From the IMG/VR virus record IMGVR_UViG_3300036801_000212, positions 1 through 64,000 of that record: a stretch of 64,000 bases of DNA; one strand, written 5' to 3'. This DNA is from a virus. Lineage: Duplodnaviria; Heunggongvirae; Uroviricota; Caudoviricetes. Positions 8,831-59,739 of the stretch are shown piece by piece (the first letter of the stretch is position 1; the number at the start of each line of letters is the position of its first letter). The notes beneath the pieces were generated by a model. The model had not been told where the DNA came from. It made no database searches and was given only the letters and a program-made list of their open reading frames with translations. The position numbers and the translations under genes were made by a program.

Positions 8831-9394
8831 TTGGCTCCAGCCCACCGTCGACAGTATCCGCTAGACAACTTCAACCGAGCATCGAATCGATCTTGGCTTG
8901 TGAAGATAGGCGCAGTGGGATGTGCCTTGGGGTGTTTGGTTGTTGTAGGCGAAAGACCGAGTTCAGTGGCGGTCGCTGCTCCCCAGCGGCTGTATCCAGC
9001 TCCCGTACTTCAGGTTCCCGCGCTCATCGTTCCGAGGTTGAAGGCTCCTCTCCTTCAAGACGTGGTTGACGTTCACCCGTTGAGTTCTGTAGATCATCTG
9101 CACGCCTTTTCCTGGCACGAAGCGATCCCTTCTACGATCGGACGGCATCGTTCTCACGCATCATCTGAGGGAGCTTTTTCTAGGGATTTTTCCCGGGGCG
9201 AAGATCATCACGAGGCGGACCGCGAGAGCCACGAAGGTGATCACCATGAAAGTCACCACGAGAGCCATCACGAGAGCCATGATCACGGTGGCCATCACGG
9301 TGGTGGTCACAGTGGTGGTCACGGAAGTCACGGTGGCCATAGCGGAGGTCACGGGGGTCACGGCGGCGGAGGTGGTCATGGCCACGGTCGATGA
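8831..9394 (+). CDS. secreted/membrane-anchored histidine-rich protein
   Basis: N-terminal hydrophobic segment IGAVGCALGCLVVVG; C-terminal HE/HG-rich tract (HHESHHESHHESHDHGGHHGGGHSGGHGSHGGHSGGHGGHGGGGGHGHG); TTG start after AGGAG. Confidence 0.55.
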   Translation: MAPAHRRQYPLDNFNRASNRSWLVKIGAVGCALGCLVVVGERPSSVAVAAPQRLYPAPVLQVPALIVPRLKAPLLQDVVDVHPLSSVDHLHAFSWHEAIPSTIGRHRSHASSEGAFSRDFSRGEDHHEADRESHEGDHHESHHESHHESHDHGGHHGGGHSGGHGSHGGHSGGHGGHGGGGGHGHGR

Positions 9395-9976: not shown

Positions 9977-10414
9977 GTGCAGACCTATCATCTTCACGAC
10001 TGCGCCGGCTGTGGCACTCGAATCCAGATCAGGGAAACCCAAAAAGGTATCGAGTCTCCCGCCGCCTACCGTCACCGTACATTCCACGGTTCCGAATGTC
10101 GCGAGCTGGCACACGTCTATCCGTCGGATGCGTCAACGAAATACCGACATGGCACTCCCGGTGGATACGAGAGATGTCGAAACCGACCGGAAGGTGCATG
10201 TCCGCTGTGTCGTGATGCCAACGCTTTCCACTTCAAGCTGGAGGTGTTGAAGCAGCTGGCGAAACTTCACCCCCATGACTATGCGGAAGTTATGAAGCAG
10301 TGTTTCACAAGAAGGGAATCGGATGGCGAACATCGAAAAGCTGGAAGCTGTACTCGACCACATCAAGATGCACCCGGAAAGTCACAACCAGGAAGTCTGG
10401 GCAGAGAAAACTGA
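9977..10414 (+). CDS. Zn-finger protein, paralog of 9396..9737 (3-prime end overlaps first family-A gene)
   Basis: Same Cys pattern as 9396..9737; GTG start directly after WhiB stop. Confidence 0.5.
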   Translation: MQTYHLHDCAGCGTRIQIRETQKGIESPAAYRHRTFHGSECRELAHVYPSDASTKYRHGTPGGYERCRNRPEGACPLCRDANAFHFKLEVLKQLAKLHPHDYAEVMKQCFTRRESDGEHRKAGSCTRPHQDAPGKSQPGSLGREN

Positions 10415-10709
10415 GTGTGGTACCGCCTACTGCATGGCCGGTTGGGCTGTGGCTCTAGCCGGTTACGAGTTTTGCTGGCGCAGCGACGGCACCACAAGCA
10501 GTGTGATAACTGAACGCACCGCGACTTCGACCCACTGTGAACTCATCGAGGAGATCGCGACAGCTGTTCTAGGTCTTGACTTCCGCGACGCCGATGACCT
10601 TTTTCATTCACTCAACACCGTCGATGACCTGGAACTCATGGTGAAGAATCTCTCGAACGGAGAGCCGATCCGTGATGGCGTTCCGATGCGCATTGAAAAG
10701 GGTCTCTGA
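10323..10709 (+). CDS. tandem paralog family A, copy 1 (uncharacterised ~120-aa protein)
   Basis: Consensus N-term MAN[IVL]EK[LC]E.VL..I+.HPE.H[DN]Q..W......CGT..C.AGW and C-term DDLE[LR].VK[ND]I[SA]N shared by six consecutive genes. Confidence 0.6.
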   Translation: MANIEKLEAVLDHIKMHPESHNQEVWAEKTECGTAYCMAGWAVALAGYEFCWRSDGTTSSVITERTATSTHCELIEEIATAVLGLDFRDADDLFHSLNTVDDLELMVKNLSNGEPIRDGVPMRIEKGL

Positions 10710-11083
10710 TGGCGAACATCGAAAAGCTCGAGGCCGTCCTGGGTCAGATCAAGGCTCACCCGGAGCAGCACAATCAGCGGGAATGGGCGGAACGCAATGA
10801 GTGTGGGACTTCATATTGTCTCGCTGGCTGGGCAGTCGTTCTCGAAGGCCACGAAATCCTGTGGGACGAGGTCGCTGAAGGAGTCTACTGTGCCCTCGAC
10901 GAGAACGGAAATATTGACAGCATCAAGAGACTCGCTGGTCGCATTCTCGACTTGTCCCCGTATCAGCGAGCGCAGATATTTTACCGTTACAACACTGTCG
11001 ACGACATCGAACTGATGACGAAGAATCTCGCAAATGGAAATCCCATCCACGCTGACATTCCGGGGCGTAGGTTTACTTTCTGA
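10709..11083 (+). CDS. tandem paralog family A, copy 2
   Basis: Same consensus; TGATGG stop-start overlap with copy 1. Confidence 0.6.
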   Translation: MANIEKLEAVLGQIKAHPEQHNQREWAERNECGTSYCLAGWAVVLEGHEILWDEVAEGVYCALDENGNIDSIKRLAGRILDLSPYQRAQIFYRYNTVDDIELMTKNLANGNPIHADIPGRRFTF

Positions 11084-11463
11084 TGGCCAACGTCGAAAAG
11101 TGTGAAGAAGTCCTCCAGTTCATCAAGGACCACCCCGAGAAGCACGACCAGAGAACGTGGGGCTACAAGAGCGACTGCGGCACGACTGCATGTTTTGCCG
11201 GCTGGACTGCCGTTCTGAACGGATACGAGTTCTATTTCGGTAGGATGGTATTCGAAAGGTATTATTCCGGGGTGAAGTCATTGAAAACCGGTGTGCATAG
11301 TTCCACCTCCACCGCTGCAGCGGTGGTTCTCGAACTCACCTGCGACGAAGCAATGATGCTCTTCGATGGCGGCAACACCTTCGAAGAGCTTGAGCAGATG
11401 GTCAAAAACATCTCAAACGGTGACCCGATCGAACGCAACACCCGCCACGACGAGGAAGACTGA
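11083..11463 (+). CDS. tandem paralog family A, copy 3
   Basis: Same consensus (MANVEKCEEVLQFIKDHPEKHDQRTW...CGTTACFAGW). Confidence 0.6.
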   Translation: MANVEKCEEVLQFIKDHPEKHDQRTWGYKSDCGTTACFAGWTAVLNGYEFYFGRMVFERYYSGVKSLKTGVHSSTSTAAAVVLELTCDEAMMLFDGGNTFEELEQMVKNISNGDPIERNTRHDEED

Positions 11464-11801
11464 TGGCTAATCTAGCGAAGATCGAAGCTGTCCTGGATTA
11501 CATTCGCACCCATCCCGAGGAGCACGACCAGAACACTTTCGCCTACCGGAATGCTTGTGGCACCCAAATGTGCTTCGCGGGGACAGCTGTTCATCTTTCT
11601 GACCAGTACAAGATCGTGTGGAGTGGTCGGGAATCCGCGGGGTGTGTCGACGCGAACGGGAATCTTGAGTCCATGCCGGACGCTGCTACAGAGATTCTCG
11701 GTCTGACCGATCAGCAGTCTTTCCAGCTTTTCCACGTCGCGCGGAACCTCGACGACCTTGAGCGCGTGGTCAAAGACATCACCAACGAGCAGGTGGCGTG
11801 A
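11463..11801 (+). CDS. tandem paralog family A, copy 4
   Basis: Same consensus (MANLAKIEAVLDYIRTHPEEHDQ...CGTQMCFAG). Confidence 0.6.
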   Translation: MANLAKIEAVLDYIRTHPEEHDQNTFAYRNACGTQMCFAGTAVHLSDQYKIVWSGRESAGCVDANGNLESMPDAATEILGLTDQQSFQLFHVARNLDDLERVVKDITNEQVA

Positions 11802-12145
11802 TGGCCAATGTCGATCTTCTTTACAAAGTTCTGGATCACATCCGTGAAAATCAAGACCAGCACGATCAGTCCAGCTGGGCGCGGAAGACGGACTGTGGAT
11901 CTAGTTTCTGCTTCGCCGGCTGGACGGTACAGCTCAGTGACTACGAGATTGTCTGGAATCAGCGGTTTCAGCAGGAGGGAGCTGACTTCTGCACCGCCCC
12001 GGGTGGTGACTACTTTTACAGCATTGAGCACGTGGCCCAGTCGCTCCTTGGGCTCGACATCCTGCAGAAGCAAGCACTGTTCTTCACTTCACAGACCTTC
12101 GATGATGTCGAGTCTGTAGTCAAGGACATAGCGAATGAGGCCTGA
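11798..12145 (+). CDS. tandem paralog family A, copy 5
   Basis: Same consensus (MMANVDLLYKVLDHIRENQDQHDQ...CGSSFCFAGW). Confidence 0.6.
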   Translation: MMANVDLLYKVLDHIRENQDQHDQSSWARKTDCGSSFCFAGWTVQLSDYEIVWNQRFQQEGADFCTAPGGDYFYSIEHVAQSLLGLDILQKQALFFTSQTFDDVESVVKDIANEA

Positions 12146-12501
12146 TGGCTGACGTTGCGAAGTTGGAAGCGGTGTTGGACTACATCCGGATGCACCCGGA
12201 GGAGCATGACCAGGGCGATTGGGCGCGACGCACCGACTGTGGCACTACTTTGTGCTTCGCCGGGACTGCCGTAGTTCTGGCTGGGTACCAGCTCGACTGG
12301 ACTAACCACTCCGACAGGACGGGACGCTGTGTGACTTCAGCGGGTGACCCGCTCTCTTTGGCGGGGACAGCTTCTATCTCTGCCGTCGCCGCGCGGGAGC
12401 TGTGCTTGGCCCCTGAGCAGGTCGAAGCCCTCTTTTGGGCCGCTGACAGCCTCGATGACTTGGAACGTATAGTCAAAGACATCGCTAACGAGGCTGCCTA
12501 A
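12145..12501 (+). CDS. tandem paralog family A, copy 6
   Basis: Same consensus (MADVAKLEAVLDYIRMHPEEHDQ...CGTTLCFAG). Confidence 0.6.
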   Translation: MADVAKLEAVLDYIRMHPEEHDQGDWARRTDCGTTLCFAGTAVVLAGYQLDWTNHSDRTGRCVTSAGDPLSLAGTASISAVAARELCLAPEQVEALFWAADSLDDLERIVKDIANEAA

Positions 12502-33462: not shown

Positions 33463-34290
33463 GTGAGTATTTACGACTATGACGCCTACTACCTGACCGA
33501 TCTAGCCAAGGGCGCCCACAACAGCCCAGACGAAGGGTTGTGCCTGATGGAGTTGACGGCGATGTTCGCCCGGGAGCAGCACTCTGACAGTCCGCGGTGT
33601 GTGTCACCCGTGTTGGGCGAATTCGGCCGGAGCTTGAACGATGTGTTGCCGGACGGTCTGCGGCAGGAGTTGAAGGGACTGATCCCGTCGCTGCCCGGTA
33701 CTGCAAACGATGGCTGGGATGAGCGGCGGAGCTTTATGGCGTTGGATTGGCTGATCCGGACGTGGCTGCCGGCGTGGCTGGACCTTTCGCCTCAGTGCCG
33801 CGAGGGCGCCCGGAGGGTGCGTGAACTGGGTCGGATCGTTGACTTGGTTTCAGCTGAGCGTGCCGGATCGATCGTGCGGGAGGCGCAGAAGGGCGCGGCT
33901 GCCGCTCGGGCTGCCGTTCGGGATGCCGCTTGGAATGCCGCTTGGAATGCCGCTCGGGATGCCGCTGGGGATGCCGCTAGCGCTGCCGCTCGGGCTGCCG
34001 CTTGGGATGCCGCTCGGGATGCCGCTCGGGCTGCCGCTCGGGCTGCCGCTCGGGCTGCCGCTGGGGATGCCGCTCGGGATGCCGCTTGGGCTGCCGCTTG
34101 GGATGCCGCTGGCGCTGCCGCTTGGGATGCCGCTTGGGATGCCGCTTGGGATGCCGCTGGCGCCGCCGCTTGGGATGCCGCTCGGGATGCCGCTGGGGCT
34201 GCCGCTGGGGCAGCTTTAAGTCCCACGGTTCATGGGTTGCAGCTATCTGCAATCGATCTGTTCGCCGAGATGATTAAGAACCCGCGGTGA
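33463..34290 (+). CDS. family C copy 2 fused to AAW[DN]AA low-complexity repeat tract
   Basis: N-terminal ~110 aa paralogous to 16241..16654; C-terminal repeats encoded by tandem gatgccgct(c/t)gg(g/a) units 33900-34200. Confidence 0.5.
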   Translation: MSIYDYDAYYLTDLAKGAHNSPDEGLCLMELTAMFAREQHSDSPRCVSPVLGEFGRSLNDVLPDGLRQELKGLIPSLPGTANDGWDERRSFMALDWLIRTWLPAWLDLSPQCREGARRVRELGRIVDLVSAERAGSIVREAQKGAAAARAAVRDAAWNAAWNAARDAAGDAASAAARAAAWDAARDAARAAARAAARAAAGDAARDAAWAAAWDAAGAAAWDAAWDAAWDAAGAAAWDAARDAAGAAAGAALSPTVHGLQLSAIDLFAEMIKNPR

Positions 34291-34325: not shown

Positions 34326-34685
34326 TGGATTTCAATGATGCAGAGCCCTATATCAACAAGTTGAAGGCGTTCCAAACTTCACGGGAGATCGCGAAGTTCC
34401 TGATTGGAGAGGGGATCAAGGCTGAACAGCGGCGGAATATGTCTTGTGCTCTCGCCGAGTAACATTCATGAGGGTTCCGGCACTTACGTGTCAGTCAGCT
34501 ACGAGAACATCTGCTCGTCCTCTGTGCGCCTAGACAGCACAAATCCCCGCTCCCGGCAGTGTTACCTCGAAGACGATGGAACGCTGAGTTGGGTCGAGAG
34601 TGAAGTTCTCGCCGTCCCCACCGCGGCGATGAAAAAGTTCATCAGGGACTTTGACCTGGGCGAGTACCCCGAACTCATCGGGTAG
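34326..34685 (+). pseudogene. amplified family B, degraded copy 6 (N-terminal 45 codons then frame change)
   Basis: MDFNDAEPYINKLKAFQTSREIAKFLIGEGIKAEQRRNMSCALAE stop; C-terminal FIRDFDLGEYPELIG in another frame ending 34685. Confidence 0.4.
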
Positions 34686-35918
34686 ATGATCAATCCTCAA
34701 TGGGTTGCCGATGCCACCGGAGTTGTATCTCTGGTGGCTATCGTGCTTGCCTTGGTGGCGGCGGCGAGGGTGAAATCTTTAACCCGGGTGTTCGGGATCG
34801 AACTGTATTCGGTCCATCGGTGGCTGGGGATCATCTCCGTTCTGGGGGTGGTAGGTCATATCGTTTTTGTTCTTCTGATGTCCAGTTCGAATCTTGGAAA
34901 ACTGTTCATCTGGGACGGAACGTTAGCTTCGAAAGCCGCTGATGTCTCAACGTATTCTTTGATTGCTTTGCTTCTCTGGCGACAGAAACAAAACTACGAG
35001 CAGTGGCGACGGTGGCATCTTGTTTTAGCTTCCGCTGTTGCCTTGGCGGGCTTTATTCACATCATTCTGTTGGCGCATCTTATAAAGCACACATCTTTCG
35101 CCGGCTCAATCACGGTTCTAGGGTGTGTTGTTGTGATAGCCGCTTTCTATAGACTGACCTCTTCACCTTATTCCGTGATAGGTGTACATCCAGAATCCCC
35201 CACTGTTTCCACCGTGACCTTAGCTCCGAAATGCGGTAAGCATCGTCCCACGCAGAGAAGGAAACGATTCCAACCGGGACAGTTCGGGTGGTTACGTCTC
35301 CATGGACAGCCAGGGAACGATCATCCTTATTCTTTCTCATCCTCGGCGAACAACAGTCAAGAGATACAGGTAACGGTAAGAAAGACCGGGAACTTCACCG
35401 ACAAGTTAACAGATTCTGTCCCCGGAAGAACCATCTGGGTGGATGGTCCCCACGGGAGTTTCTCCCCACCAGACTCCGCGCCAGGATTAGTTCTGATCGG
35501 AGCCGGAGTAGGGATGACACCGATGATGTCCATTCTTAGAACCTGCGCGGATCAACAAGACACGCGATCTATCAGGTTGATACAGTCCGCCGAATCCCCC
35601 GAAGAATTGTTATACTTCGAGGAGGTGAATCAACTTCCGTTGAATCTGGAGATCACGAGAGTGATAACTCGACCCCGCCCAGGGTGGGTGGGGAAAGTGG
35701 GGAGGATTGACATTGCGTTGTTGCATCAAGTTCTCCCGGGGAGACCGGTGAGAGAAAACCAAAGTTTCTTCCTCTGCGGGCCTCCGATGATGGTGGTTGA
35801 TACGGAATGCGCCTTGGTTTCCCTTGGTATCCCCGCGATAAATATCCACACCGAAAGATTCAACATGTCCCCCACGAAAGGTAAACCTAAACACGCATTG
35901 GAGGTAGAGCGTGGATAA
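34686..35918 (+). CDS. ferric-reductase/NOX-like transmembrane flavohaemoprotein (ferric reductase TM domain + FAD/NAD(P)H-binding FNR-like domain)
   Basis: Six hydrophobic helices with His pairs (HRWLG..H, HIIL..H); FNR-type motifs HPYSF (FAD), GPHG, LIGAGVGMTP (NAD), FLCGP; region AT-richer than surroundings. Confidence 0.75.
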   Translation: MINPQWVADATGVVSLVAIVLALVAAARVKSLTRVFGIELYSVHRWLGIISVLGVVGHIVFVLLMSSSNLGKLFIWDGTLASKAADVSTYSLIALLLWRQKQNYEQWRRWHLVLASAVALAGFIHIILLAHLIKHTSFAGSITVLGCVVVIAAFYRLTSSPYSVIGVHPESPTVSTVTLAPKCGKHRPTQRRKRFQPGQFGWLRLHGQPGNDHPYSFSSSANNSQEIQVTVRKTGNFTDKLTDSVPGRTIWVDGPHGSFSPPDSAPGLVLIGAGVGMTPMMSILRTCADQQDTRSIRLIQSAESPEELLYFEEVNQLPLNLEITRVITRPRPGWVGKVGRIDIALLHQVLPGRPVRENQSFFLCGPPMMVVDTECALVSLGIPAINIHTERFNMSPTKGKPKHALEVERG

Positions 35919-36123
35919 AATCTTGATGACGGAACATCGAACCACGGTAAAGAAGATCAGCGAGGCATGGGTGGTGACCTGCAATAACTCCGACTGTCCC
36001 TTCTACGACACTCCCTCTTTGTTTATGAACTGGGGGAACGCTGTGCACGCCGGGAATTTGCACGCGTGGCACGGAGTGAAAGCTCTTCCGGTGGACTATT
36101 CCGTAGCGTTGAGGTGGAGGTGA
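35911..36123 (+). CDS. hypothetical protein
   Basis: GTG start overlapping upstream stop. Confidence 0.4.
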   Translation: MDKILMTEHRTTVKKISEAWVVTCNNSDCPFYDTPSLFMNWGNAVHAGNLHAWHGVKALPVDYSVALRWR

Positions 36124-36244
36124 TCACCCCGCGTGCACGACAGATCATCTGGGAACACATCGTTAGTTTCGGGTGGAATATCTTCTTCTTCCTTGCTGGC
36201 GTTGTGTTTTTGGTGGTTAGCATCCATCTAGCAGTGAGGTACTG

Positions 36245-36787
36245 GTGATGGTAGAGACATTCCCTCCGCATTCTGATCAGCCGATCGAACCTCGAGCGCT
36301 GACCAACGAAGAGACCGACCTCGTGCTGTGGTTGATTGCCGAACGCGGGTGGCAGTCCGAGGAACTTGGTCGTATTGCGGCGAGGGAGCTGCGGGACCGA
36401 AAGAAGAACGAAGCTGAAGCTGCGAAGCGGAAGACATTGGACGCACACAGCGCACTCGTGGAGTCCGCGTCGGGGTTCCGTCGCGCCGTACTGGAAAAGC
36501 ACGGGCCATACGCGCCGTGGGCCCACGATGACCTAGTCCTGTGTTTCGTTTGTGGGGACAACCAGGGGAGCTTTGATTTTCCGTGCGACGAGTACGAGTT
36601 CGCCCGCGATTGGCGTGACGACCATTCCGGGTCTGACTGTTCCGACACATGCACGTTAGCCGTCCTAAAGGAACTCGCTGAGTTTGTCTGCGAACAATGC
36701 CCGGTTGGCCACTGTCAAGACTCCGACGACCGCACGACATGGTGTCTGTCTTGCCGTGCACGAGGACTGGTCGCCGGCGGAAAATAA
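36245..36787 (+). CDS. Cys-rich hypothetical protein
   Basis: ORF; several CxxC/CxC clusters in C-terminal half. Confidence 0.45.
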   Translation: MMVETFPPHSDQPIEPRALTNEETDLVLWLIAERGWQSEELGRIAARELRDRKKNEAEAAKRKTLDAHSALVESASGFRRAVLEKHGPYAPWAHDDLVLCFVCGDNQGSFDFPCDEYEFARDWRDDHSGSDCSDTCTLAVLKELAEFVCEQCPVGHCQDSDDRTTWCLSCRARGLVAGGK

Positions 36788-37036: not shown

Positions 37037-37762
37037 TTGAACGAGATCGCGGAACGATATCTCATGCTCGACCCCACCCCCAGTAGCGGAGGATGGGACG
37101 GTAGCAGAGGTTCCCCCGGTTTCGGTTCTCGCTCCCCCGCCAGTGACCACATTATTGCGATGATGGATCGTAGGTCCAGTTCCGACGCTCGAGTATGGGT
37201 TGGTGGGGATGGGAGGGTTCATCGGGAGGCGACGAATCCTCCGCTGTCGGTGTTCTCCGTGCTTGATACATGGGCGTGGGATGTGGCGGAACAAAGAGGC
37301 TTCGACCATCGACAGCTGGTTTCCGTCGAGGCTGTCTGTCGCTGGCTGGACAATCAACTCGACTGGATTTGCCGGCATGAAGCTGTCGCGGACTTCCATG
37401 AGGATGTGCGGAAGCTTCTGGGACAGTTGAGGCCAGTCACTGGGGATCGCTGTATCCAGATTGGGGACTGTCCCGAGTGTGACACTGCACTTTTCGCTCC
37501 CCTTCAAGGTGACACCATCACCTGTGTGGAGTGTGGCGAGAGCTGGAACAAAGACCGCTGGCTGGCGCTAGCGGAACGGATGGGCGTCGATCAGGATGAT
37601 TTCGTGAGCACTGCTGGGGTGAGTGTTCGTTACAACATCACGATCAGCGCTGTTCGGTCTAGGGCAAGCAGGGAGAAGTGGACTCCGTACGGTCCGCCAA
37701 GGGAGCGATTCTGGTCTCTGAAGGAGGTCAGAAAATCTTTCGAAGAAATCCCAGAGCGGTAA
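37037..37762 (+). CDS. hypothetical protein with C-terminal Zn-ribbon (CPECD...CVECG); possible N-terminal extension to ~36890
   Basis: TTG start in track; same frame is open upstream and encodes a second Zn-ribbon (CLTCR...CGLC) without canonical start codon. Confidence 0.5.
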   Translation: MNEIAERYLMLDPTPSSGGWDGSRGSPGFGSRSPASDHIIAMMDRRSSSDARVWVGGDGRVHREATNPPLSVFSVLDTWAWDVAEQRGFDHRQLVSVEAVCRWLDNQLDWICRHEAVADFHEDVRKLLGQLRPVTGDRCIQIGDCPECDTALFAPLQGDTITCVECGESWNKDRWLALAERMGVDQDDFVSTAGVSVRYNITISAVRSRASREKWTPYGPPRERFWSLKEVRKSFEEIPER

Positions 37763-39493: not shown

Positions 39494-40195
39494 ATGACCT
39501 GCTCCCGTCCTTGGCGTTCTACCGCTCGCAAGAATCAAATCCCACCTGAGGGTGACTGGCTTGTGTTCTTGATGTGTTTCGGCAGGGGCGCGGGAAAAAC
39601 GTGGGCCGCATCAAACTGGATCGCCGAGCAAGCCGCTGCTCGTCCAGGCACGCACTGGGCTATCGTGGCACCTACCTGGCGCGATCTACGACTAGTCTGC
39701 ATCGAGGGCAGTTCAGGCATCCTCAGGGCTCTCCAGTCGGGCGAACTTGACAGCTTCAACCATAGCGACATGAGTGTGCGTTTGAAGAATGGCTCACAGA
39801 TTCACGGCTACTCCAACGATGGGGTCGAACGCATCACCGGTCAGTACGCCGGCGCGTGGATCGAGGAGCTTCGCGGCATGGAGAACGCGGAGAAGATGTG
39901 GCGTGAGCATCTCCTCCCGACGATGGCGAAGATGGTTCAGCCGAGAGTTTTTGTGACCACCACACCAGAGAATCCCGATCTCCCACTGGAGTGTCCAACG
40001 CAGGGTCCGTTCCGGCCGAATGCTCTGCAGAAGACTTTCATGAACGACACCAGTGGCATGGTGGCCAAGGTCCTCGGTAGCACCTGGGACAATGTGGAGA
40101 ATCTGTCACCTTGCGCGGTTGAGGAGTTGAAGAAGCGCTACGGCAACACTCTCGCGGGCCGTACTCAGCTTGAGGGTATCTCTCTCCCCATGTGA
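39494..40195 (+). CDS. terminase large-subunit-like ATPase domain only (no nuclease domain)
   Basis: Walker A FGRGAGKTWAAS, Walker B YAGAWIEEL, terminase-type coupling motif VFVTTTPENPD; ORF ends 200 nt before IS element. Confidence 0.6.
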   Translation: MTCSRPWRSTARKNQIPPEGDWLVFLMCFGRGAGKTWAASNWIAEQAAARPGTHWAIVAPTWRDLRLVCIEGSSGILRALQSGELDSFNHSDMSVRLKNGSQIHGYSNDGVERITGQYAGAWIEELRGMENAEKMWREHLLPTMAKMVQPRVFVTTTPENPDLPLECPTQGPFRPNALQKTFMNDTSGMVAKVLGSTWDNVENLSPCAVEELKKRYGNTLAGRTQLEGISLPM

Positions 40196-40408
40196 ATAAC
40201 TGGTAGGCTCAAGCTACATCCCAGGTGATGCGGATCGCCTGAGCTGGCACGGTTGTCGGCCATACCGTGAGGATTAGGGAGTGTCGGGTAATCGACCAGG
40301 TCCAGGGACAGCCAGCAAAAGCCACCGGTTCCGGTCATCACAGCAAGGCCGGCTTCTGGAACCAACGGTATCCGCACCCTAACTTCACCCGAGAAAGCTC
40401 CGAGGAAG

Positions 40409-41705
40409 CCCCCGGATTTATCCGTGGGGAGGAATCGGAGTGCCGTGCCTTACTCATGTCGTGCCCTCTGGTAAAGTGGATGTCGTGAGGACGGCGTACA
40501 AGGTTCGTGCCTACCCCGACACTGAGCAGGCGACGCTGCTGCGTCGCACCTTCGGGTGTGTGCGCCTGGTATGGAACAAGACCCTCGCCGATCGGCAATG
40601 CCGCTACACCGTCGAGCAGCGCAGCACTCCGTATAAGGAGACTGACGCCGCCCTCGCTGCGTGGAAACACACCGACGAGCTGGCGTTTCTGTCCGAGGTG
40701 TCCTCGGTTCCGTTGCAGCAGACGTTGCGGCATCAGCACACCGCGTTCCAAAACTTCTTCGCCAAACGAGGCCGCTACCCGAAGTTCAAGTCCCGCAACT
40801 CGCGCCAGTCCGCGCACTACACCCGGTCGGCGTTCCGCATCAAACCCGATGGATTGTGGCTGGCTAAAACCACTGCGCCGTTGAAAGTGGCGTGGTCGTG
40901 GCCCGACATTGACATGACCGGACTCGACCCGACGATGGTCATCGTCAGCGTCGAACCCGACGGCCGCTGGTACGTCACCTTCGCCGTGGACGTTTCCGCT
41001 CCGGCTCCGCTGCCCGCCGTCGGCGAGACGGTCGGAGTCGACGTCGGGTTGAAGGACTTCGCTGTCCTGTCCACCGGGGAGCGCATCGCCAACCCACGGC
41101 ATCTAGCCAAGCGCGCCCGGAACTTGGCCCGCTACCAGCGACGCATGACCCGCTGTAAGCGTGGCTCCGCGAACCGAGCCAAGGCCAAACTGAAGGTCGC
41201 TCGGGCACACTCGAAGGTCCGCGCTGCACGAAACGACTTCCTGCACAAGACCAGCACCACATTGGTCCGCCGGTTCGATCGGGTCGGCATCGAAGATCTG
41301 AACGTATCCGGCATGGTCCGCGATCACCCGCTCGCCAAGGCGATTTCCGACGTTGGGTGGGGCGAGTTCCGGTCCATGCTCGAATACAAGGCGCAACGCG
41401 CCGGACGTCAGATGATCGCCATCGACCGCTGGTACCCGTCGAGCAAGACATGCAGTTCGTGTGGCCACCTGCTGACCTTCCTTTCCCTTGGTACGCGTCA
41501 GTGGACGTGTCCCGGATGCGGCACCCGACATGATCGGGACTTGAACGCCGCGAAGAACATCGATACGGCGGCCGGGCTGGTCGCTGCTGCCTCCGGAGGG
41601 CCGGTGAGACCTGTGCAGGCAACTGCTGGGCACGGCCCAGCGAAAGAGGAACCCCGACTCGTGAGGGTTGGAATCCCCCGCCTTTAGGCGTGGGGAGGAA
41701 GTCAA
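40409..41705 (+). mobile_element. second IS200/IS605-family tnpB-only element, ~1.3 kb
   Basis: Left-end hairpin CCCCCGGATTTATCCGTGGGG identical to first element; right-end hairpin CCCCCGCCTTTAGGCGTGGGG followed by AGGAAGTCAA. Confidence 0.65.
40485..41687 (+). CDS. tnpB: TnpB (diverged paralog of 24783..25925)
   Basis: RTAYKVRAYPDTEQATLLRRTFGCVRLVWNKTL; RuvC-like motifs; CSSCG...CPGCG Zn finger; NAAKNI. Confidence 0.85.
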   Translation: MRTAYKVRAYPDTEQATLLRRTFGCVRLVWNKTLADRQCRYTVEQRSTPYKETDAALAAWKHTDELAFLSEVSSVPLQQTLRHQHTAFQNFFAKRGRYPKFKSRNSRQSAHYTRSAFRIKPDGLWLAKTTAPLKVAWSWPDIDMTGLDPTMVIVSVEPDGRWYVTFAVDVSAPAPLPAVGETVGVDVGLKDFAVLSTGERIANPRHLAKRARNLARYQRRMTRCKRGSANRAKAKLKVARAHSKVRAARNDFLHKTSTTLVRRFDRVGIEDLNVSGMVRDHPLAKAISDVGWGEFRSMLEYKAQRAGRQMIAIDRWYPSSKTCSSCGHLLTFLSLGTRQWTCPGCGTRHDRDLNAAKNIDTAAGLVAAASGGPVRPVQATAGHGPAKEEPRLVRVGIPRL

Positions 41706-41824: not shown

Positions 41825-42112
41825 ATGAGAAAGAGTTTCGGCTTCTACTACACCCGCGAAGACGAGGTACGTCTTCGGATCCGAGAGTATCCGTGGCGCT
41901 GGCACTTTCTTGCTTACGCAGCTGACGTCGTCTGCGCCATGACTCGTCACCGACTGTGTAACAGTCTTGTTTCGTGGGCTTATGACAAGGCCGATGGCCA
42001 CGTGGGCTACAAGGAAGAGTTCCCCGCCTCGAAGGAACAATGGGTGGAGTTCGCTAAGGCTACCGGCGGCGAGGACCCTTCGTGGTGGTGGACTGAAGAA
42101 GAGGAATCGTGA
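41825..42112 (+). CDS. hypothetical protein
   Basis: ORF; Trp-rich acidic C-terminus. Confidence 0.45.
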   Translation: MRKSFGFYYTREDEVRLRIREYPWRWHFLAYAADVVCAMTRHRLCNSLVSWAYDKADGHVGYKEEFPASKEQWVEFAKATGGEDPSWWWTEEEES

Positions 42113-42537
42113 AGATTTACCGCGAACATAACGTCGGCTACTCCTGTAGAGGTTTCGCACTCTTCATCACGGAATTCCCTATGCACCGTTGGGCTTTGGG
42201 TGAGGTCGGATACAACCTTATCGGACGTTTGAGGTGTTCCGAACTTTCCCACCGTGCGTTGAATGCGATCATCGACTGGCAGCATAAATACACGTTCACT
42301 GTGGCGGAAATTCCGTTGACGACGGAACAAGCGTTGATTCTATGTCCCAGCTATGAGGACGAGATCGAACCTGAGGGTTGGATCACAGTTAACGGCGCTG
42401 ATGAGCATGGGGATATCTACGAGGACGCGGCGTTGACCGTCGCTAGGTGTAGGGAATGTGGTCAGATGCTCCCCGCGAATGGTCGTTGGTGGCAGAAGAT
42501 CATTGATGAACACCGACCTTTTTGCGCGGCGAGTTGA
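42109..42537 (+). CDS. hypothetical protein
   Basis: GTGA overlap; ORF. Confidence 0.5.
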   Translation: MKIYREHNVGYSCRGFALFITEFPMHRWALGEVGYNLIGRLRCSELSHRALNAIIDWQHKYTFTVAEIPLTTEQALILCPSYEDEIEPEGWITVNGADEHGDIYEDAALTVARCRECGQMLPANGRWWQKIIDEHRPFCAAS

Positions 42538-42743
42538 TGACCGACGAATACTGGGGTGGGGAACTAGCTCCCGCTGATAGATGGGGTAGATGTCCCATCC
42601 GTGGCAATGCGGTGAAGATCGTTCACGAAACTCTATGTGATCACGCTGAGTTCGAAGATGCCGCACTGTGTGGTCCGACGGCTTCGTTGGTCGTCGATAG
42701 GTTGATTGAGGCTGAGATTTTGCCGGACGAGATGGCCGAATGA
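42537..42743 (+). CDS. hypothetical protein
   Basis: TGATG stop-start overlap. Confidence 0.4.
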   Translation: MTDEYWGGELAPADRWGRCPIRGNAVKIVHETLCDHAEFEDAALCGPTASLVVDRLIEAEILPDEMAE

Positions 42744-43093
42744 GACGCTTCGATAGCATCGGTATCGGCGAAGACTACTTGGCGATCGACCGGTATCCGT
42801 GGTACTGGTGGCCAGTCAAAGAGTTCCTCCACCTCTTCTGCAAGGCGACTGGCTGTCGTTTCTGCATGTCGCACCTGGTGTGGAAGTTGGACCACAAGTT
42901 TCTCAATTCCCCGCACCAGACCTTGAAGATTCCGATGTCTCCCGAGTTGCGGGTTGAGATTGCCAAGGCATACGGCATTGAGTTGACGTGTCATACGTGG
43001 CTCGACGACGAAGAAGACGATCAACTGTGTGAGCTTCCGGCTCTGCATGAGGGTGAACATTTCGACTCGGACACCGGCCGGCGGTGGACGTGA
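42740..43093 (+). CDS. hypothetical protein
   Basis: ATGA overlap. Confidence 0.45.
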   Translation: MRRFDSIGIGEDYLAIDRYPWYWWPVKEFLHLFCKATGCRFCMSHLVWKLDHKFLNSPHQTLKIPMSPELRVEIAKAYGIELTCHTWLDDEEDDQLCELPALHEGEHFDSDTGRRWT

Positions 43094-51372: not shown

Positions 51373-52092
51373 GTGGGGCGTCACAGTAAGCCGTCTCAGT
51401 CTCATGCTGGACGCAACATCGCAGCCGTGGCTACTTCCGGAGCTTTTGTAGCGGTTCCACTGACACAGGGAACCGCGTTTGCAACTACAGAAGAAACGCA
51501 CCCGGCAATTGAATCAATTGCGCAAGCGGATGGTCCGCCACAAGGGTGGGGCGGCGTTGTGAAATGTGAATCCGGTGGCCGCATAGACGCGGTCAATCCG
51601 GAGAGCACGGCGAGTGGCGCTTTCCAGATACTGGATTCGACGTGGCGGTCGAACACTGGTTTGCAGTACTCCCGCCGCGCGAAAGATGCGACTTTTCAGC
51701 AGCAATTGAATGTCGCTAATCATATTTATGCGCAGTCGGGATTAGTCCCTTGGACTGCATCGAGGCATTGCTGGCGCCACATCCTCAGCACTCCCCTGCG
51801 GATCGTCGGCGGACTCCTGGGGATGGCTCAGCGGCAGCCCGAGGAGCGGCTCATCTCGGATGAGCACAGTACGGGCCGCCACCGCCGTTTCGGCCGCCAC
51901 CGTGCTATTCAGACCCCTGTAGCGCGGCCCCAGATCATTCAGGCCTCGCAGAGGTACACGGTCAAGCCGGGAGACACGTTGTCGGCCATCGCGACAGAGC
52001 ATGGTCACACCTGGCAACAACTGTTCGAGTCGAACCGTGCGACGGTCCATGACCCGAATTTAATCCACGTCGGTCAAATCCTGAGCCTGTAG
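51373..52092 (+). CDS. secreted Rpf-like lytic transglycosylase domain + C-terminal LysM
   Basis: Signal peptide; core CESGGRIDAVNPESTASGAFQILDSTW...SGLVPW resembles resuscitation-promoting-factor/transglycosylase-like domain; LysM YTVKPGDTLSAIA...NLIHVGQIL. Confidence 0.7.
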   Translation: MGRHSKPSQSHAGRNIAAVATSGAFVAVPLTQGTAFATTEETHPAIESIAQADGPPQGWGGVVKCESGGRIDAVNPESTASGAFQILDSTWRSNTGLQYSRRAKDATFQQQLNVANHIYAQSGLVPWTASRHCWRHILSTPLRIVGGLLGMAQRQPEERLISDEHSTGRHRRFGRHRAIQTPVARPQIIQASQRYTVKPGDTLSAIATEHGHTWQQLFESNRATVHDPNLIHVGQILSL

Positions 52093-52103
52093 GTGAGACG
52101 CCA

Positions 52104-52955
52104 ATGCTGCGTCATCGTTTAGTCGTCGCACTTCTCGTTGTAGTCGCGCTTGTCGGCTTAACGCTGCCCGCGGTAGCACGATCTCACCACCACAAGCACC
52201 ATCACCATCATAAGCACCACTCGTCAAGTCAGTTCGAGGATCACCACAAGAAGAGGCATCACCACGGGAGCAACATTTCCCTCGGAGGTGTCTCTAACGC
52301 GTCCGGTAGTACGGACAGCTCGGGCATTTCGAGTGGTGCGACCTCGAGCGGCTCTGACGCCAGCACGGATACCGGCAGTGCGGTACCCACCGCTAATACT
52401 CCCGCGGTGGCTCCCGCCACGGGCTTGACTGCGCCCGATGCGACGACCGCGACACCAGCTGCTGGCCTCGTCCCAGGCGGTACGCAGGAAACGATCATGA
52501 GAACGGGCTATGCGGCCGCCGACAATAATCCTGCTGGTTCAACCACAATTAGCCAACCGGTTATCCATTCAAAGGCCGGTGGGACCTGCACGAACTCAGA
52601 CCCGACAACTTTCGCATCCCCCGGAAGTGCCGGTTCAACGGAATTCCCTAAAGGTGAGCGCGTTTATTTTCCTGATCTACAATGCTACGGAATCAGTGAG
52701 GATAGCGGCGCAACTAAGGAATCGGTTAAACATATTGATTTGTGGTCCGGGAATCAAGCTAAGTCCATTACGGATAAATGCGAATCCGACATTACCGGCA
52801 GCACGACAATCATTGTGAATCCCCCGTCGAATGAGCCCGTTAACCCCGGAGCCTTGACTACAGCCTCAGGCTGTCACTTCCCGGCGGGGTTTAGTAGCGG
52901 TGGCTCAAGTGGTGGCGGCAAGAAGCATCACAAGAAGAAGAAGTCCGACAACTAG
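52104..52955 (+). CDS. secreted His-rich protein with Ser/Thr-rich linker and C-terminal domain
   Basis: Signal peptide LVVALLVVVALVGLTLPAVA; HHHKHHHHHKHH...HHKKRHHHG; low-complexity S/T/A tract. Confidence 0.55.
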   Translation: MLRHRLVVALLVVVALVGLTLPAVARSHHHKHHHHHKHHSSSQFEDHHKKRHHHGSNISLGGVSNASGSTDSSGISSGATSSGSDASTDTGSAVPTANTPAVAPATGLTAPDATTATPAAGLVPGGTQETIMRTGYAAADNNPAGSTTISQPVIHSKAGGTCTNSDPTTFASPGSAGSTEFPKGERVYFPDLQCYGISEDSGATKESVKHIDLWSGNQAKSITDKCESDITGSTTIIVNPPSNEPVNPGALTTASGCHFPAGFSSGGSSGGGKKHHKKKKSDN

Positions 52956-59361: not shown

Positions 59362-59739
59362 TTACCCTCGATGATGTCGATGGTGATGTTTGTGGTGTTT
59401 GCGATGGTGATGTCTAACGTGGTGATGGTGCGTCTTATGTCCTTGAGCATGGCTGGTATGAGCAGAAACGTCGTGAAGTCGCCGCGAATGTAGAGAAACT
59501 CGAACGGCTCGCGCATGCCGCCGAATGCTGGTGTACACCGATCGCTTGCCTGACCGACGATGATCGAGCTTAGCTGGAATCCCATGGGCGGAGACCGGCA
59601 GCGTGTGAGCGGTTGGTGAATTTGTAGGTTGGATATCGTGTTGGGTAGTGGTTCCACTCGTTAAGAGGAGGAACACACCGACCAACATAGTTCCTACCGC
59701 TATAGCTAGTTTGTTTCTGGGTTGACTGTGCCGGCCCAT
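59362..59739 (-). CDS. secreted/membrane-anchored His-rich protein (third His-rich protein in window)
   Basis: N-terminal hydrophobic helix LAIAVGTMLVGVFLLLTSG; C-terminal HKTHHHHVRHHHRKHHKHHHRHH. Confidence 0.5.
   Translation of the reverse strand: MGRHSQPRNKLAIAVGTMLVGVFLLLTSGTTTQHDIQPTNSPTAHTLPVSAHGIPAKLDHRRSGKRSVYTSIRRHARAVRVSLHSRRLHDVSAHTSHAQGHKTHHHHVRHHHRKHHKHHHRHHRG

Follow-up and report, generated by a model that had tools for sequence, protein, structure and literature searches.

A 64,000-nucleotide (nt) stretch of phage DNA, comprising positions 1 to 64,000 of the IMG/VR record IMGVR_UViG_3300036801_000212 and referred to here as the window, contains a gene at 34686..35918 of the plus strand that starts with ATG and encodes a 410-amino acid product. 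As judged from its sequence, the protein is a bis-haem membrane domain of the ferric reductase type (FRD; residues 1-157, 34686..35156) fused to a cytoplasmic FNR-type dehydrogenase module for flavin adenine dinucleotide (FAD) and NAD(P)H (residues 158-392, 35157..35861). It ends in an 18-residue C-terminal tail, NMSPTKGKPKHALEVERG (35862..35915). Transmembrane (TM) enzymes of the NADPH oxidase (NOX)/ferric reductase type are known from eukaryotes and bacteria. An initial annotation of this DNA, made without database searches, gave the coordinates of the open reading frame (ORF) exactly and called the product a NOX/ferric-reductase-type transmembrane flavohaemoprotein; Pfam domains, cofactor motifs and a fold match to a solved bacterial NOX bear this out. 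The ORF is full-length and has no internal stops or frameshifts.

The membrane domain matches Pfam PF01794 (Ferric_reduct) at residues 11-121. The score of 29.8 bits is a narrow pass relative to the cut-off of 28, and the match spans profile positions 1-120 of 121, i.e. it has full-length coverage. The dehydrogenase domain matches PF00175 (NAD_binding_1) at residues 270-372 with 59.4 bits against a cut-off of 22. Two FAD-binding families are just sub-threshold at residues 192-259 (FAD_binding_6, PF00970, 19.4 versus 21.1 bits; FAD_binding_8, PF08022, 18.5 versus 22 bits), and NCBIfam and PDB sequence searches give many matches to FNR-family reductases over residues 190-395. The four motifs cited in the initial annotation are all located in the sequence. 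These are the FAD motif HPYSF (213-217), GPHG (254-257), the NAD(P)H motif LIGAGVGMTP (270-279, with GVGMTP at 274-279) and FLCGP (362-366, with CGP at 364-366). The domain terminates with an ERF motif at 390-392.

An AlphaFold2 model based on a 110-sequence alignment has a mean pLDDT of 91.8 and a pTM of 0.88. It consists of five long helices followed by a beta-barrel (residues 160-256) and a Rossmann-type domain, and disorder is limited to the last 13 residues. The FNR-like fold is backed both by the FNR-family structure matches and by the modelled beta-barrel. The sole solved protein that aligns across both halves (E = 5e-14) is a 399-amino acid ‘FAD-binding FR-type domain-containing protein’ (8qq7/8qt6/8qta), which Foldseek and the literature show to be SpNOX, the NADPH oxidase of Streptococcus pneumoniae. 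Foldseek against the PDB gives SpNOX a TM-score of 0.71-0.73 and a root mean square deviation of 3.7-3.9 Å over ~400 columns. It is the only full-length PDB fold match with a TM-score >0.7; other top matches cover the dehydrogenase half only or superpose poorly.

Two pairs of histidines are the predicted haem ligands: H44 and H58 on the equivalent of NOX TM3 (34815..34859), and H111 and H125 on the equivalent of TM5 (35016..35060). All four are invariant in the alignment of 110 homologues, and in all 110 sequences the spacing is i+14 on both helices (H44-x13-H58 and H111-x13-H125). Conservation of this spacing was one of the points on which the initial annotation had staked its reading. A HMMER alignment places the four residues opposite the four histidines on TM3 and TM5 of SpNOX, where H69/H129 ligate the inner haem and H82/H142 the outer haem (PMC11031084). 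By this correspondence H44 and H111 would hold the inner haem and H58 and H125 the outer one. There is a one-residue gap between H111/H125 and SpNOX H129/H142, the spacing being i+14 here and i+13 in SpNOX. A spacing of i+14 falls within the NOX-defining window His-X12/14-His (Hajjar et al. 2017, PMC5676040).

A membrane domain of five helices

Secondary structure assignment of the model by DSSP gives TM helices at residues 4-26, 30-65, 80-97, 104-129 and 136-156, which correspond to NOX TM2-TM6. Hydropathy analysis displays four clear peaks, with the short helix 80-97 below the cut-off; the bacterial relatives sampled have mostly six (e.g. P0013). In the rest of the family TM1 consists of a block of ~28 residues for which the window protein and the 11 proteins closest to it have no equivalent. 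The same is evident from the number of residues that precede the first haem histidine, 36-57 in the phage proteins versus 64-206 (mostly 75-80) in 98 bacterial relatives. Since TM1 is absent, the histidine pairs are on the second and fourth helices instead of the third and fifth.

The initial annotation had described a six-helix domain, and a miscalled start or a detached TM1 was considered as a way to recover the missing helix. Both were rejected. An in-frame TAG (34683-34685) is found directly before the ATG, and thus an N-terminal extension is impossible and the short form is no gene-calling artefact. In addition, the upstream ORF is not hydrophobic, and in the alignment the start position is common to all members of the clade to which the protein belongs. 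On the sequences compared, the loss of TM1 is specific to one monophyletic clade of phage proteins.

The haems of SpNOX are held by TM2-5 in the solved structure (PMC11031084), and therefore the cofactor-binding core of the phage protein would be complete despite the loss of TM1. Arginine and lysine residues are concentrated in loops 27-33 and 98-110. This fits a topology in which the N-terminus is outside and the C-terminus inside, with the FNR domain predicted to be cytoplasmic. A natural five-helix form offers a test of how much of the NOX membrane domain can be dispensed with, TM1 being peripheral to the haem-binding TM2-5 bundle.

The direct homologues of the protein are the bacterial long-form FRD proteins (bFRE; Zhang et al. 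2013, PMC3591440), with 30-40% identity over 94% of the length. They have the same domain order, the four histidines at i+14 on both helices and the cofactor motifs, but differ in having six TM helices, a chromosomal location and variable neighbours. Long-form homologues from Nocardia, Pseudonocardia, Paraburkholderia, Yersinia and others bear the database names ‘ferredoxin reductase family protein’ or ‘ferric reductase-like transmembrane domain-containing protein’. SpNOX, the member of this long-form family with a solved structure, is likewise a single-chain FRD plus FNR protein of ~400 amino acids with the four haem histidines aligned, short extracellular loops and no histidine or arginine of the eukaryotic O2 pocket (PMC5676040, PMC11031084). 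However, sequence identity with SpNOX is only 17-19%, and the window protein differs in its five TM helices, the i+14 spacing on TM5, the 18-residue tail after the ERF motif and its being phage-encoded.

The initial annotation considered enzymes of this type rare in phages, and catalogue searches agree. PHROGs has no family for this protein, BFVD has no structure at E < 1e-3, and the 50,697 phage records of INPHARED contain no full-length match, only the dehydrogenase half being matched at ~25% identity. PADLOC has no model that matches the enzyme, and the literature searched describes no phage-encoded ferric reductase or NOX. The protein is a phage-specific five-helix NOX-like flavocytochrome that is absent from the phage catalogues searched, although the family itself is known from bacteria. 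A phage enzyme that spends host NAD(P)H to export electrons would represent a new auxiliary function, with possible bearing on envelope chemistry, reactive oxygen species, metals and membrane potential.

Phage relatives, the lysis cassette and u330

Besides one cluster of identical sequence, a large-database search returns 11 clusters that are 46-60% identical to the protein; below these comes a broad bacterial family at <=40%. A 120-kilobase (kb) contig on record encodes the identical protein. A HMMER scan of 1.84 billion representatives finds 256 proteins at E <= 1e-30, and only three of these exceed 50% identity: the protein itself, P0009 and one fragment. One close member is found in the GTDB species genomes (on a 24-kb contig binned with a Mycobacterium metagenome-assembled genome, MAG), one in IMG/VR (a 100.5-kb viral genome) and one further in the JGI metagenome set.

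The proteins without TM1 (P0002-P0012, L013, L015 and L095) form a monophyletic clade in a neighbour-joining tree. The clade adjoins a bacterial subfamily that includes the Pseudonocardia MAG sequence P0013, and the window protein is nested within it as sister to P0002. Members show 46-60% identity to the window protein and have five helices; HPYSF is found in all but P0012, which has HPFTF, and P0002 shares GVGMTP.

The surroundings of the gene were read in nine other phage contexts (loci L004, L005, L006, L008, L009, L013, L015, L095 and L175), eight of which are TM1-less clade members. All close relatives with readable surroundings are in phage DNA and in one conserved block. The order of the block is tail-fibre-like genes, a GH25 endolysin, two small two-TM holin-like proteins, the FRD-FNR gene, a gene termed u330, a LysM protein, a ~180-amino acid protein with a signal-peptide-like N-terminus, and a sortase. 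This order is pieced together across loci, as several contigs end before the full block. The pair formed by the enzyme and u330 is next to lysis genes in 9/9 contexts. The LysM protein carries His-rich tracts in L004 and L008, and is without them in L006.

A more distant protein, P0241 (41% identity, on a deeper branch), keeps TM1 and is encoded between the C-terminus of an apparent amidase-type endolysin and a u330 homologue. Thus the pairing of the enzyme with u330 predates the loss of TM1. The window gene has none of the cassette neighbours (GH25, holin-like, u330 and others), and its nesting within a clade of cassette-borne genes signifies that the cassette location is ancestral and the window location derived. 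The phylogeny agrees in this respect with the lateral acquisition proposed in the initial annotation, the clade being carried elsewhere in a different conserved cassette. The genes of clade relatives have a guanine plus cytosine (GC) content of 62-66%, which matches their own genomes, whereas that of the window gene is 51%; the window gene was therefore not recently imported from those phages.

The sortase and the ~180-amino acid protein upstream of it are found at L004 13005-14227, L005 13052-14310, L006 13053-14352 and L008 14137-15436. The C-terminus of the latter displays a conserved (P/V)x(T/A)GDG(S/T)xxx motif without the usual hydrophobic anchor. Perhaps this end may function as an atypical sorting signal.

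The partner gene encodes an exported protein of ~410-425 amino acids with six conserved cysteines. It starts with a Sec signal peptide, e.g. MRRSTLFVPLLAVLALVLSGGVAWA, followed by a conserved PNPNCT...GLATPYEL segment that is also present in bacterial u330 homologues. In L004 the gene is in the region 10001-12470, and equivalents are found in L005, L006, L008, L009, L013, L015, L095 and L175. Among the cassette genes compared, u330 has the highest identity between phages, 53-85%. At least 5,882 homologues make up the u330 family, those named among the top matches being from Pseudonocardiaceae/Amycolatopsis. There is no Pfam family for u330, and its AlphaFold model (pLDDT 80.5) has no PDB fold match at E <1. 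Coupling of the enzyme to u330 would provide a lead into a large uncharacterised family of secreted actinobacterial proteins, and possibly into the role of bacterial NOX-like proteins.

In one Pseudonocardiaceae chromosome (L177/L178 4865-7392) a u330-family gene divergently adjoins a gene for an Fe/Mn superoxide dismutase. This single locus is suggestive of a link between u330 and superoxide biology.

The C-terminal ends of the enzymes reveal how the two genes are joined. In 97/98 bacterial relatives the protein ends exactly 3 residues past the conserved Phe of the ERF motif. Clade relatives are ~40-140 residues longer than the window protein and have a Pro/Arg-rich tail. In the cassette phages the enzyme ORF runs 46-144 residues past the dehydrogenase domain and across the u330 start, such that about 200-575 nt of the NOX ORF also encode, in another frame, the 5′ end of u330 with its signal peptide. 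In L004, L008 and L009, the u330 frame becomes open 4 nt past the ExF codon; in L005, L006 and L175, it is open as early as 44-140 nt before that point. From these frame relationships, the ‘tail’ of the enzyme in this clade is the ORF stretch that overlaps the 5′ end of u330.

The window enzyme retains only the first 18 tail residues. In the overlapping +1 frame this stretch encodes CPPRKVNLNTHWR followed by a stop. The encoded residues are similar to those directly before the u330 start in L006, and the frame stops where the u330 signal peptide would begin. u330 was not found in the 64-kb window, either by tblastn or with a hidden Markov model (HMM) at maximum sensitivity, and tblastn with the cassette partners gives only a generic LysM-domain match at 51.9-52.1 kb. 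The window gene looks like a solo copy cut at the enzyme/u330 junction, with the tail a relic of the overlap region.

Surroundings of the bacterial relatives were surveyed as well, by naive ORF calling that is noisy in high-GC DNA. The neighbours are heterogeneous, with apparent cytochrome oxidase genes in ~30/158 loci (L016-L174). In those ~30 loci the enzyme gene is 3′ of haem-copper-oxidase-like genes (CoxI/III, CoxII, CtaG-like), as recognized by sequence motifs only. In two Actinobacteria loci (L011 9350-11209; L012 2328-4411) the enzyme gene is followed by genes for a DUF4142 protein and a lipoprotein, the latter with conserved GHFHTACR and GDGSHR motifs. A conserved bacterial neighbour as a functional clue was dropped, the neighbours being too heterogeneous.

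Proposed electron export and competing explanations

The initial annotation took the gene to be probably a moron, possibly active during lysogeny. Its packing lends no support to this. The TAG stop of an upstream ORF directly abuts the ATG, and a downstream ORF overlaps the stop by 8 nt, an operon-like arrangement within a co-directional gene run towards a terminase-like gene. A consensus scan of 33-38 kb found one promoter-like and three terminator-like sites, at or below the shuffle expectation. None of the scanned sites brackets the gene on its own strand, and one plus-strand terminator-like site is inside the ORF. It should be pointed out that the promoter scan was of the sigma-70 type only, which covers actinobacterial promoters poorly. 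The operon-like packing, together with the lack of a promoter or terminator signal of its own, favours expression during lytic growth over that of a lysogeny-expressed moron.

The predicted reaction would begin with binding of NAD(P)H to the cytoplasmic FNR-like domain and reduction of FAD. From FAD, single electrons would move first onto the inner b-haem (H44/H111) and next onto the outer one (H58/H125), which would hand them to an acceptor on the outer side of the host membrane. The secreted u330 would be the probable physiological acceptor or co-worker in the cassette phages, by analogy with MsrQ and MsrP. The solo copy, in an aerobic host, would by default transfer one electron to O2 outside the cell and yield superoxide, or reduce another small oxidant there. 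It would consume host NAD(P)H in lytic growth and export charge. Superoxide production and changes in host redox had been raised in the initial annotation, and would be possible roles of such an enzyme.

The outer face of the modelled protein has little to restrict the acceptor. The outer loops are short, with 3, 14 and 6 residues. In eukaryotic NOX the O2 centre is formed by a histidine four residues after the outer TM3 ligand and a TM2 arginine near the distal haem, with loops that form a cap (PMC11031084). The phage protein has Val at H58+4, where Leu or Val is found across the family, and thus the O2-pocket histidine is absent; there is also no conserved arginine in the outer half of the first helix. 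SpNOX, MsrQ and CsNOX have been grouped together as FRDs without the eukaryotic O2-pocket features (PMC11031084). With short outer loops and neither pocket residue, the distal haem of the phage protein is probably exposed and unselective, as in SpNOX and MsrQ.

We are confident of the architecture and of the direction of electron transfer, taken by themselves. The whole statement, i.e. that the window encodes an intact five-helix long-form FRD enzyme which works solo and reduces O2 or a small oxidant outside the cell, is one to which we give an even chance. Cofactor loading, the acceptor and the direction in which electrons flow are inferred from the fold and the conserved ligands, as is the timing of expression from the gene packing.

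Several observations weigh against the whole statement. To our knowledge, haem and FAD loading of a five-helix FRD is without precedent. Gene packing is the entire basis for the timing of expression. u330, invariable elsewhere, is absent from the 64-kb window, and could lie in the remaining ~56 kb of the genome. With a GC of 0.513, the gene ranks lowest among the 55 plus-strand ORFs (mean 0.582, sd 0.041), in line with the AT-richer stretch noted in the initial annotation, and its GC3 is 0.552 versus a window mean of 0.648 (sd 0.064). Relative to the clade, small deletions have shortened TM4 by 3 residues and the linker between TM6 and the dehydrogenase domain by 6. Both the composition and the deletions might indicate relaxed selection, and three other contigs of the same phage, with 99.7-100% DNA identity, provide no substitutions in the gene for a selection test. 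In addition, the protein does not pass the strict NOX filters of Hajjar et al., be it for helix count and histidine positions, FAD motif or NADPH motif. In that definition a NOX has six TM helices, histidine pairs on the third and fifth, and the FAD motif H[PSA]F[TS][LIMV], although the software tolerated 3-7 predicted helices (PMC5676040). HPYSF falls outside the FAD motif, whereas the nearest bacterial relatives have HPFTI and pass; GVGMTP fails the NADPH motif in having Met at position 4, whereas GVGITP, found in most clade members, passes. None of the three filters excludes the nearest bacterial relatives.

The low GC and the two deletions, taken with the lost partner, the junction relic that ends in a stop and the position of the gene as the sole clade member found outside the cassette, raise the question of whether it is a decaying passenger, separated from the cassette by recombination and drifting without any contribution to fitness. 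We consider this quite unlikely. Apart from the ORF being full-length with no frameshift or internal stop, all 14/14 residues that are invariant family-wide are kept, as are 45/46 of those conserved at >=95% and 56/59 at >=90%, the exceptions being F-to-Y at two positions and a third position that falls within the absent TM1. Of the clade-invariant positions, 105/120 (87.5%) are kept, compared with 85% in P0012 and 91% in P0011. Most substitutions are conservative and in the direction of AT (R to K, V to I, A to S), the confidence of the AlphaFold model is as expected of a native protein, and three metagenome samples contain the gene in unaltered form. On balance, by the residues it retains, the solo gene looks functional.

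If the gene is functional, its acceptor becomes the point at issue, and the most serious alternative to the reduction of a small oxidant is that the protein is no oxidase and serves as a dedicated electron donor to an extracytoplasmic protein. u330 would be the partner in relatives, and would here be encoded elsewhere or by the host. E. coli MsrQ (YedZ), which feeds the secreted MsrP from an exposed distal haem, offers a functional analogy for the pairing of the phage enzyme with u330. MsrQ differs in being a short form with six helices and without a fused FNR domain, Fre acting in trans; short-form FRDs generally do not have some of the four conserved histidines (PMC3591440). MsrP, in turn, is a molybdoenzyme and unrelated to u330. 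That FRDs with an exposed haem such as MsrQ dock periplasmic partners (PMC11031084) is in line with a donor role, as are the invariant pairing in nine other phage contexts, the exceptional conservation of u330 between phages, the size and actinobacterial affiliation of its family, and a signal peptide and a start that overlaps the 3′ end of the NOX gene, which suggests coupled expression. On the other hand, u330 has no recognisable redox cofactor motif, Pfam family or PDB fold match, the one bacterial u330 locus examined does not adjoin an FRD gene, and even the maximum-sensitivity HMM did not detect u330 in the window. The GC content of the window phage, 57%, is also well below that of u330-bearing phage loci (62-66%). 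A donor role is thus a possibility to be kept in mind, albeit the less probable one for the solo copy.

The initial annotation raised metal reduction in connection with three His-rich secreted proteins of the window, and three His-rich ORFs with hydrophobic N-terminal segments do exist. One can envisage a ferric or cupric reductase that works with these phage proteins in metal uptake, or in loading or unloading of metal at the cell wall. The name of the family and the metal reduction known from STEAP/FRE proteins (PMC3591440) are compatible with this; so are the proximity of one of the His-rich ORFs to an Rpf/LysM protein, and the DUF4142 protein and His-containing lipoprotein whose genes follow those of the actinobacterial relatives. 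The His-rich LysM protein of L004 and L008, encoded two genes 3′ of the enzyme, keeps the idea alive without proving it; not all cassette LysM proteins have such tracts, the one in L006 being an exception. The His-rich genes of the window are 16-26 kb from the enzyme gene, there are no metal-transport genes nearby, and the neighbours in the bacterial family vary, with apparent cytochrome oxidase genes in some loci and DUF4142 in others. A metal reductase role is therefore unlikely. The reduction of O2 or a small oxidant outside the cell continues to be the explanation that we prefer for the solo copy.

A broader scenario can be drawn from the cassette. Perhaps, in one actinobacterial phage lineage, a NOX-like enzyme of the host was domesticated and cut down to an electron exporter with five helices. 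Encoded beside the lysis genes, it would act together with the exported u330, LysM/His-rich proteins and sortase as an extracytoplasmic redox system. We regard this as doubtful. Such a phage redox system might condition the envelope by reactive oxygen species or reductive wall chemistry. Alternatively, electrogenic electron export might collapse the membrane potential on which holins depend, and thereby help to time lysis. In this scenario, the solo copy of the window would indicate that a phage can benefit from the enzyme where the usual partner is missing.

Neighbouring genes and the phage genome

The ORF upstream of the enzyme gene is small, 65 amino acids by the JGI call (34488..34685, plus strand), and the one downstream encodes 70 amino acids, function unassigned (35911..36123, plus strand); both are seen in gene calls on identical contigs. 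Neither has a Pfam match, and the downstream ORF has no match in PADLOC. A further plus-strand ORF of 60 amino acids with a C-terminal hydrophobic helix (36066-36248) lies two genes 3′ of the enzyme and was called as a gene on identical Logan contigs. A link to defence systems was considered and rejected, as PADLOC gives no match for the enzyme or its neighbours, save two weak sub-threshold matches to 37037..37762.

The initial annotation had placed the gene beside repeat proteins and decayed paralogs. The repeat protein, on the 5′ side, is real: 33463-34290 on the plus strand encodes 275 amino acids with a long degenerate run of AAWDAARDAA-type repeats, and belongs to phrog_8332 (unknown function). 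Across this repeat all three frames on both strands are open. Decayed paralogs of the enzyme were not detected, tblastn of the window at E up to 10 finding only the gene itself.

The window is phage-like, as the initial annotation had it, and is regarded as part of a novel actinophage on the evidence of its gene content and protein matches. Nearly all genes are small and on one strand. Phage-type genes include those for two RNA ligases, a polynucleotide kinase, a metallophosphoesterase, an exonuclease, a ParB-methyltransferase fusion, another methyltransferase, a replication initiator, endonuclease VII, a T5orf172-like protein, a serine recombinase and the N-terminal part of a large terminase. 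The best protein matches are mostly to actinobacteriophages (Streptomyces, Arthrobacter, Rhodococcus, Clavibacter, Gordonia) at 27-53% identity. No virion genes are visible in the 64-kb window, and thus the designation ‘phage’ is based on the replication, nucleic-acid and packaging genes. The sole DNA match in the 50,697 phage records is to the insertion sequence (IS) of Mycobacterium phage Llij.

That match is next to the terminase-like ORF (233 amino acids; 39494-41687 region), which has the N-terminal ATPase part only (Terminase_6N); the terminase nuclease domain is not visible in the 64-kb window. A TnpB/IS-type transposase gene, 40440..41687, follows this ORF and shows 72.7% DNA identity to the IS of Llij gp82/83.

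The three His-rich ORFs are at 8831..9394 (plus strand), 52104..52955 (plus strand) and 59362..59739 (minus strand), and their products are putative secreted or membrane-anchored proteins. They contain tracts such as HHHKHHHHHKHH and (HE/HG)n. The ORF at 52104..52955 directly follows a gene for an Rpf-like transglycosylase plus LysM protein (51373..52092).

Three small plus-strand ORFs, 41825..42112, 42109..42537 and 42740..43093, share motifs such as YPW(R/Y)WW. They may be a small paralogous family, perhaps the ‘decayed paralogs’ meant in the initial annotation, and are unrelated to the NOX-like gene.

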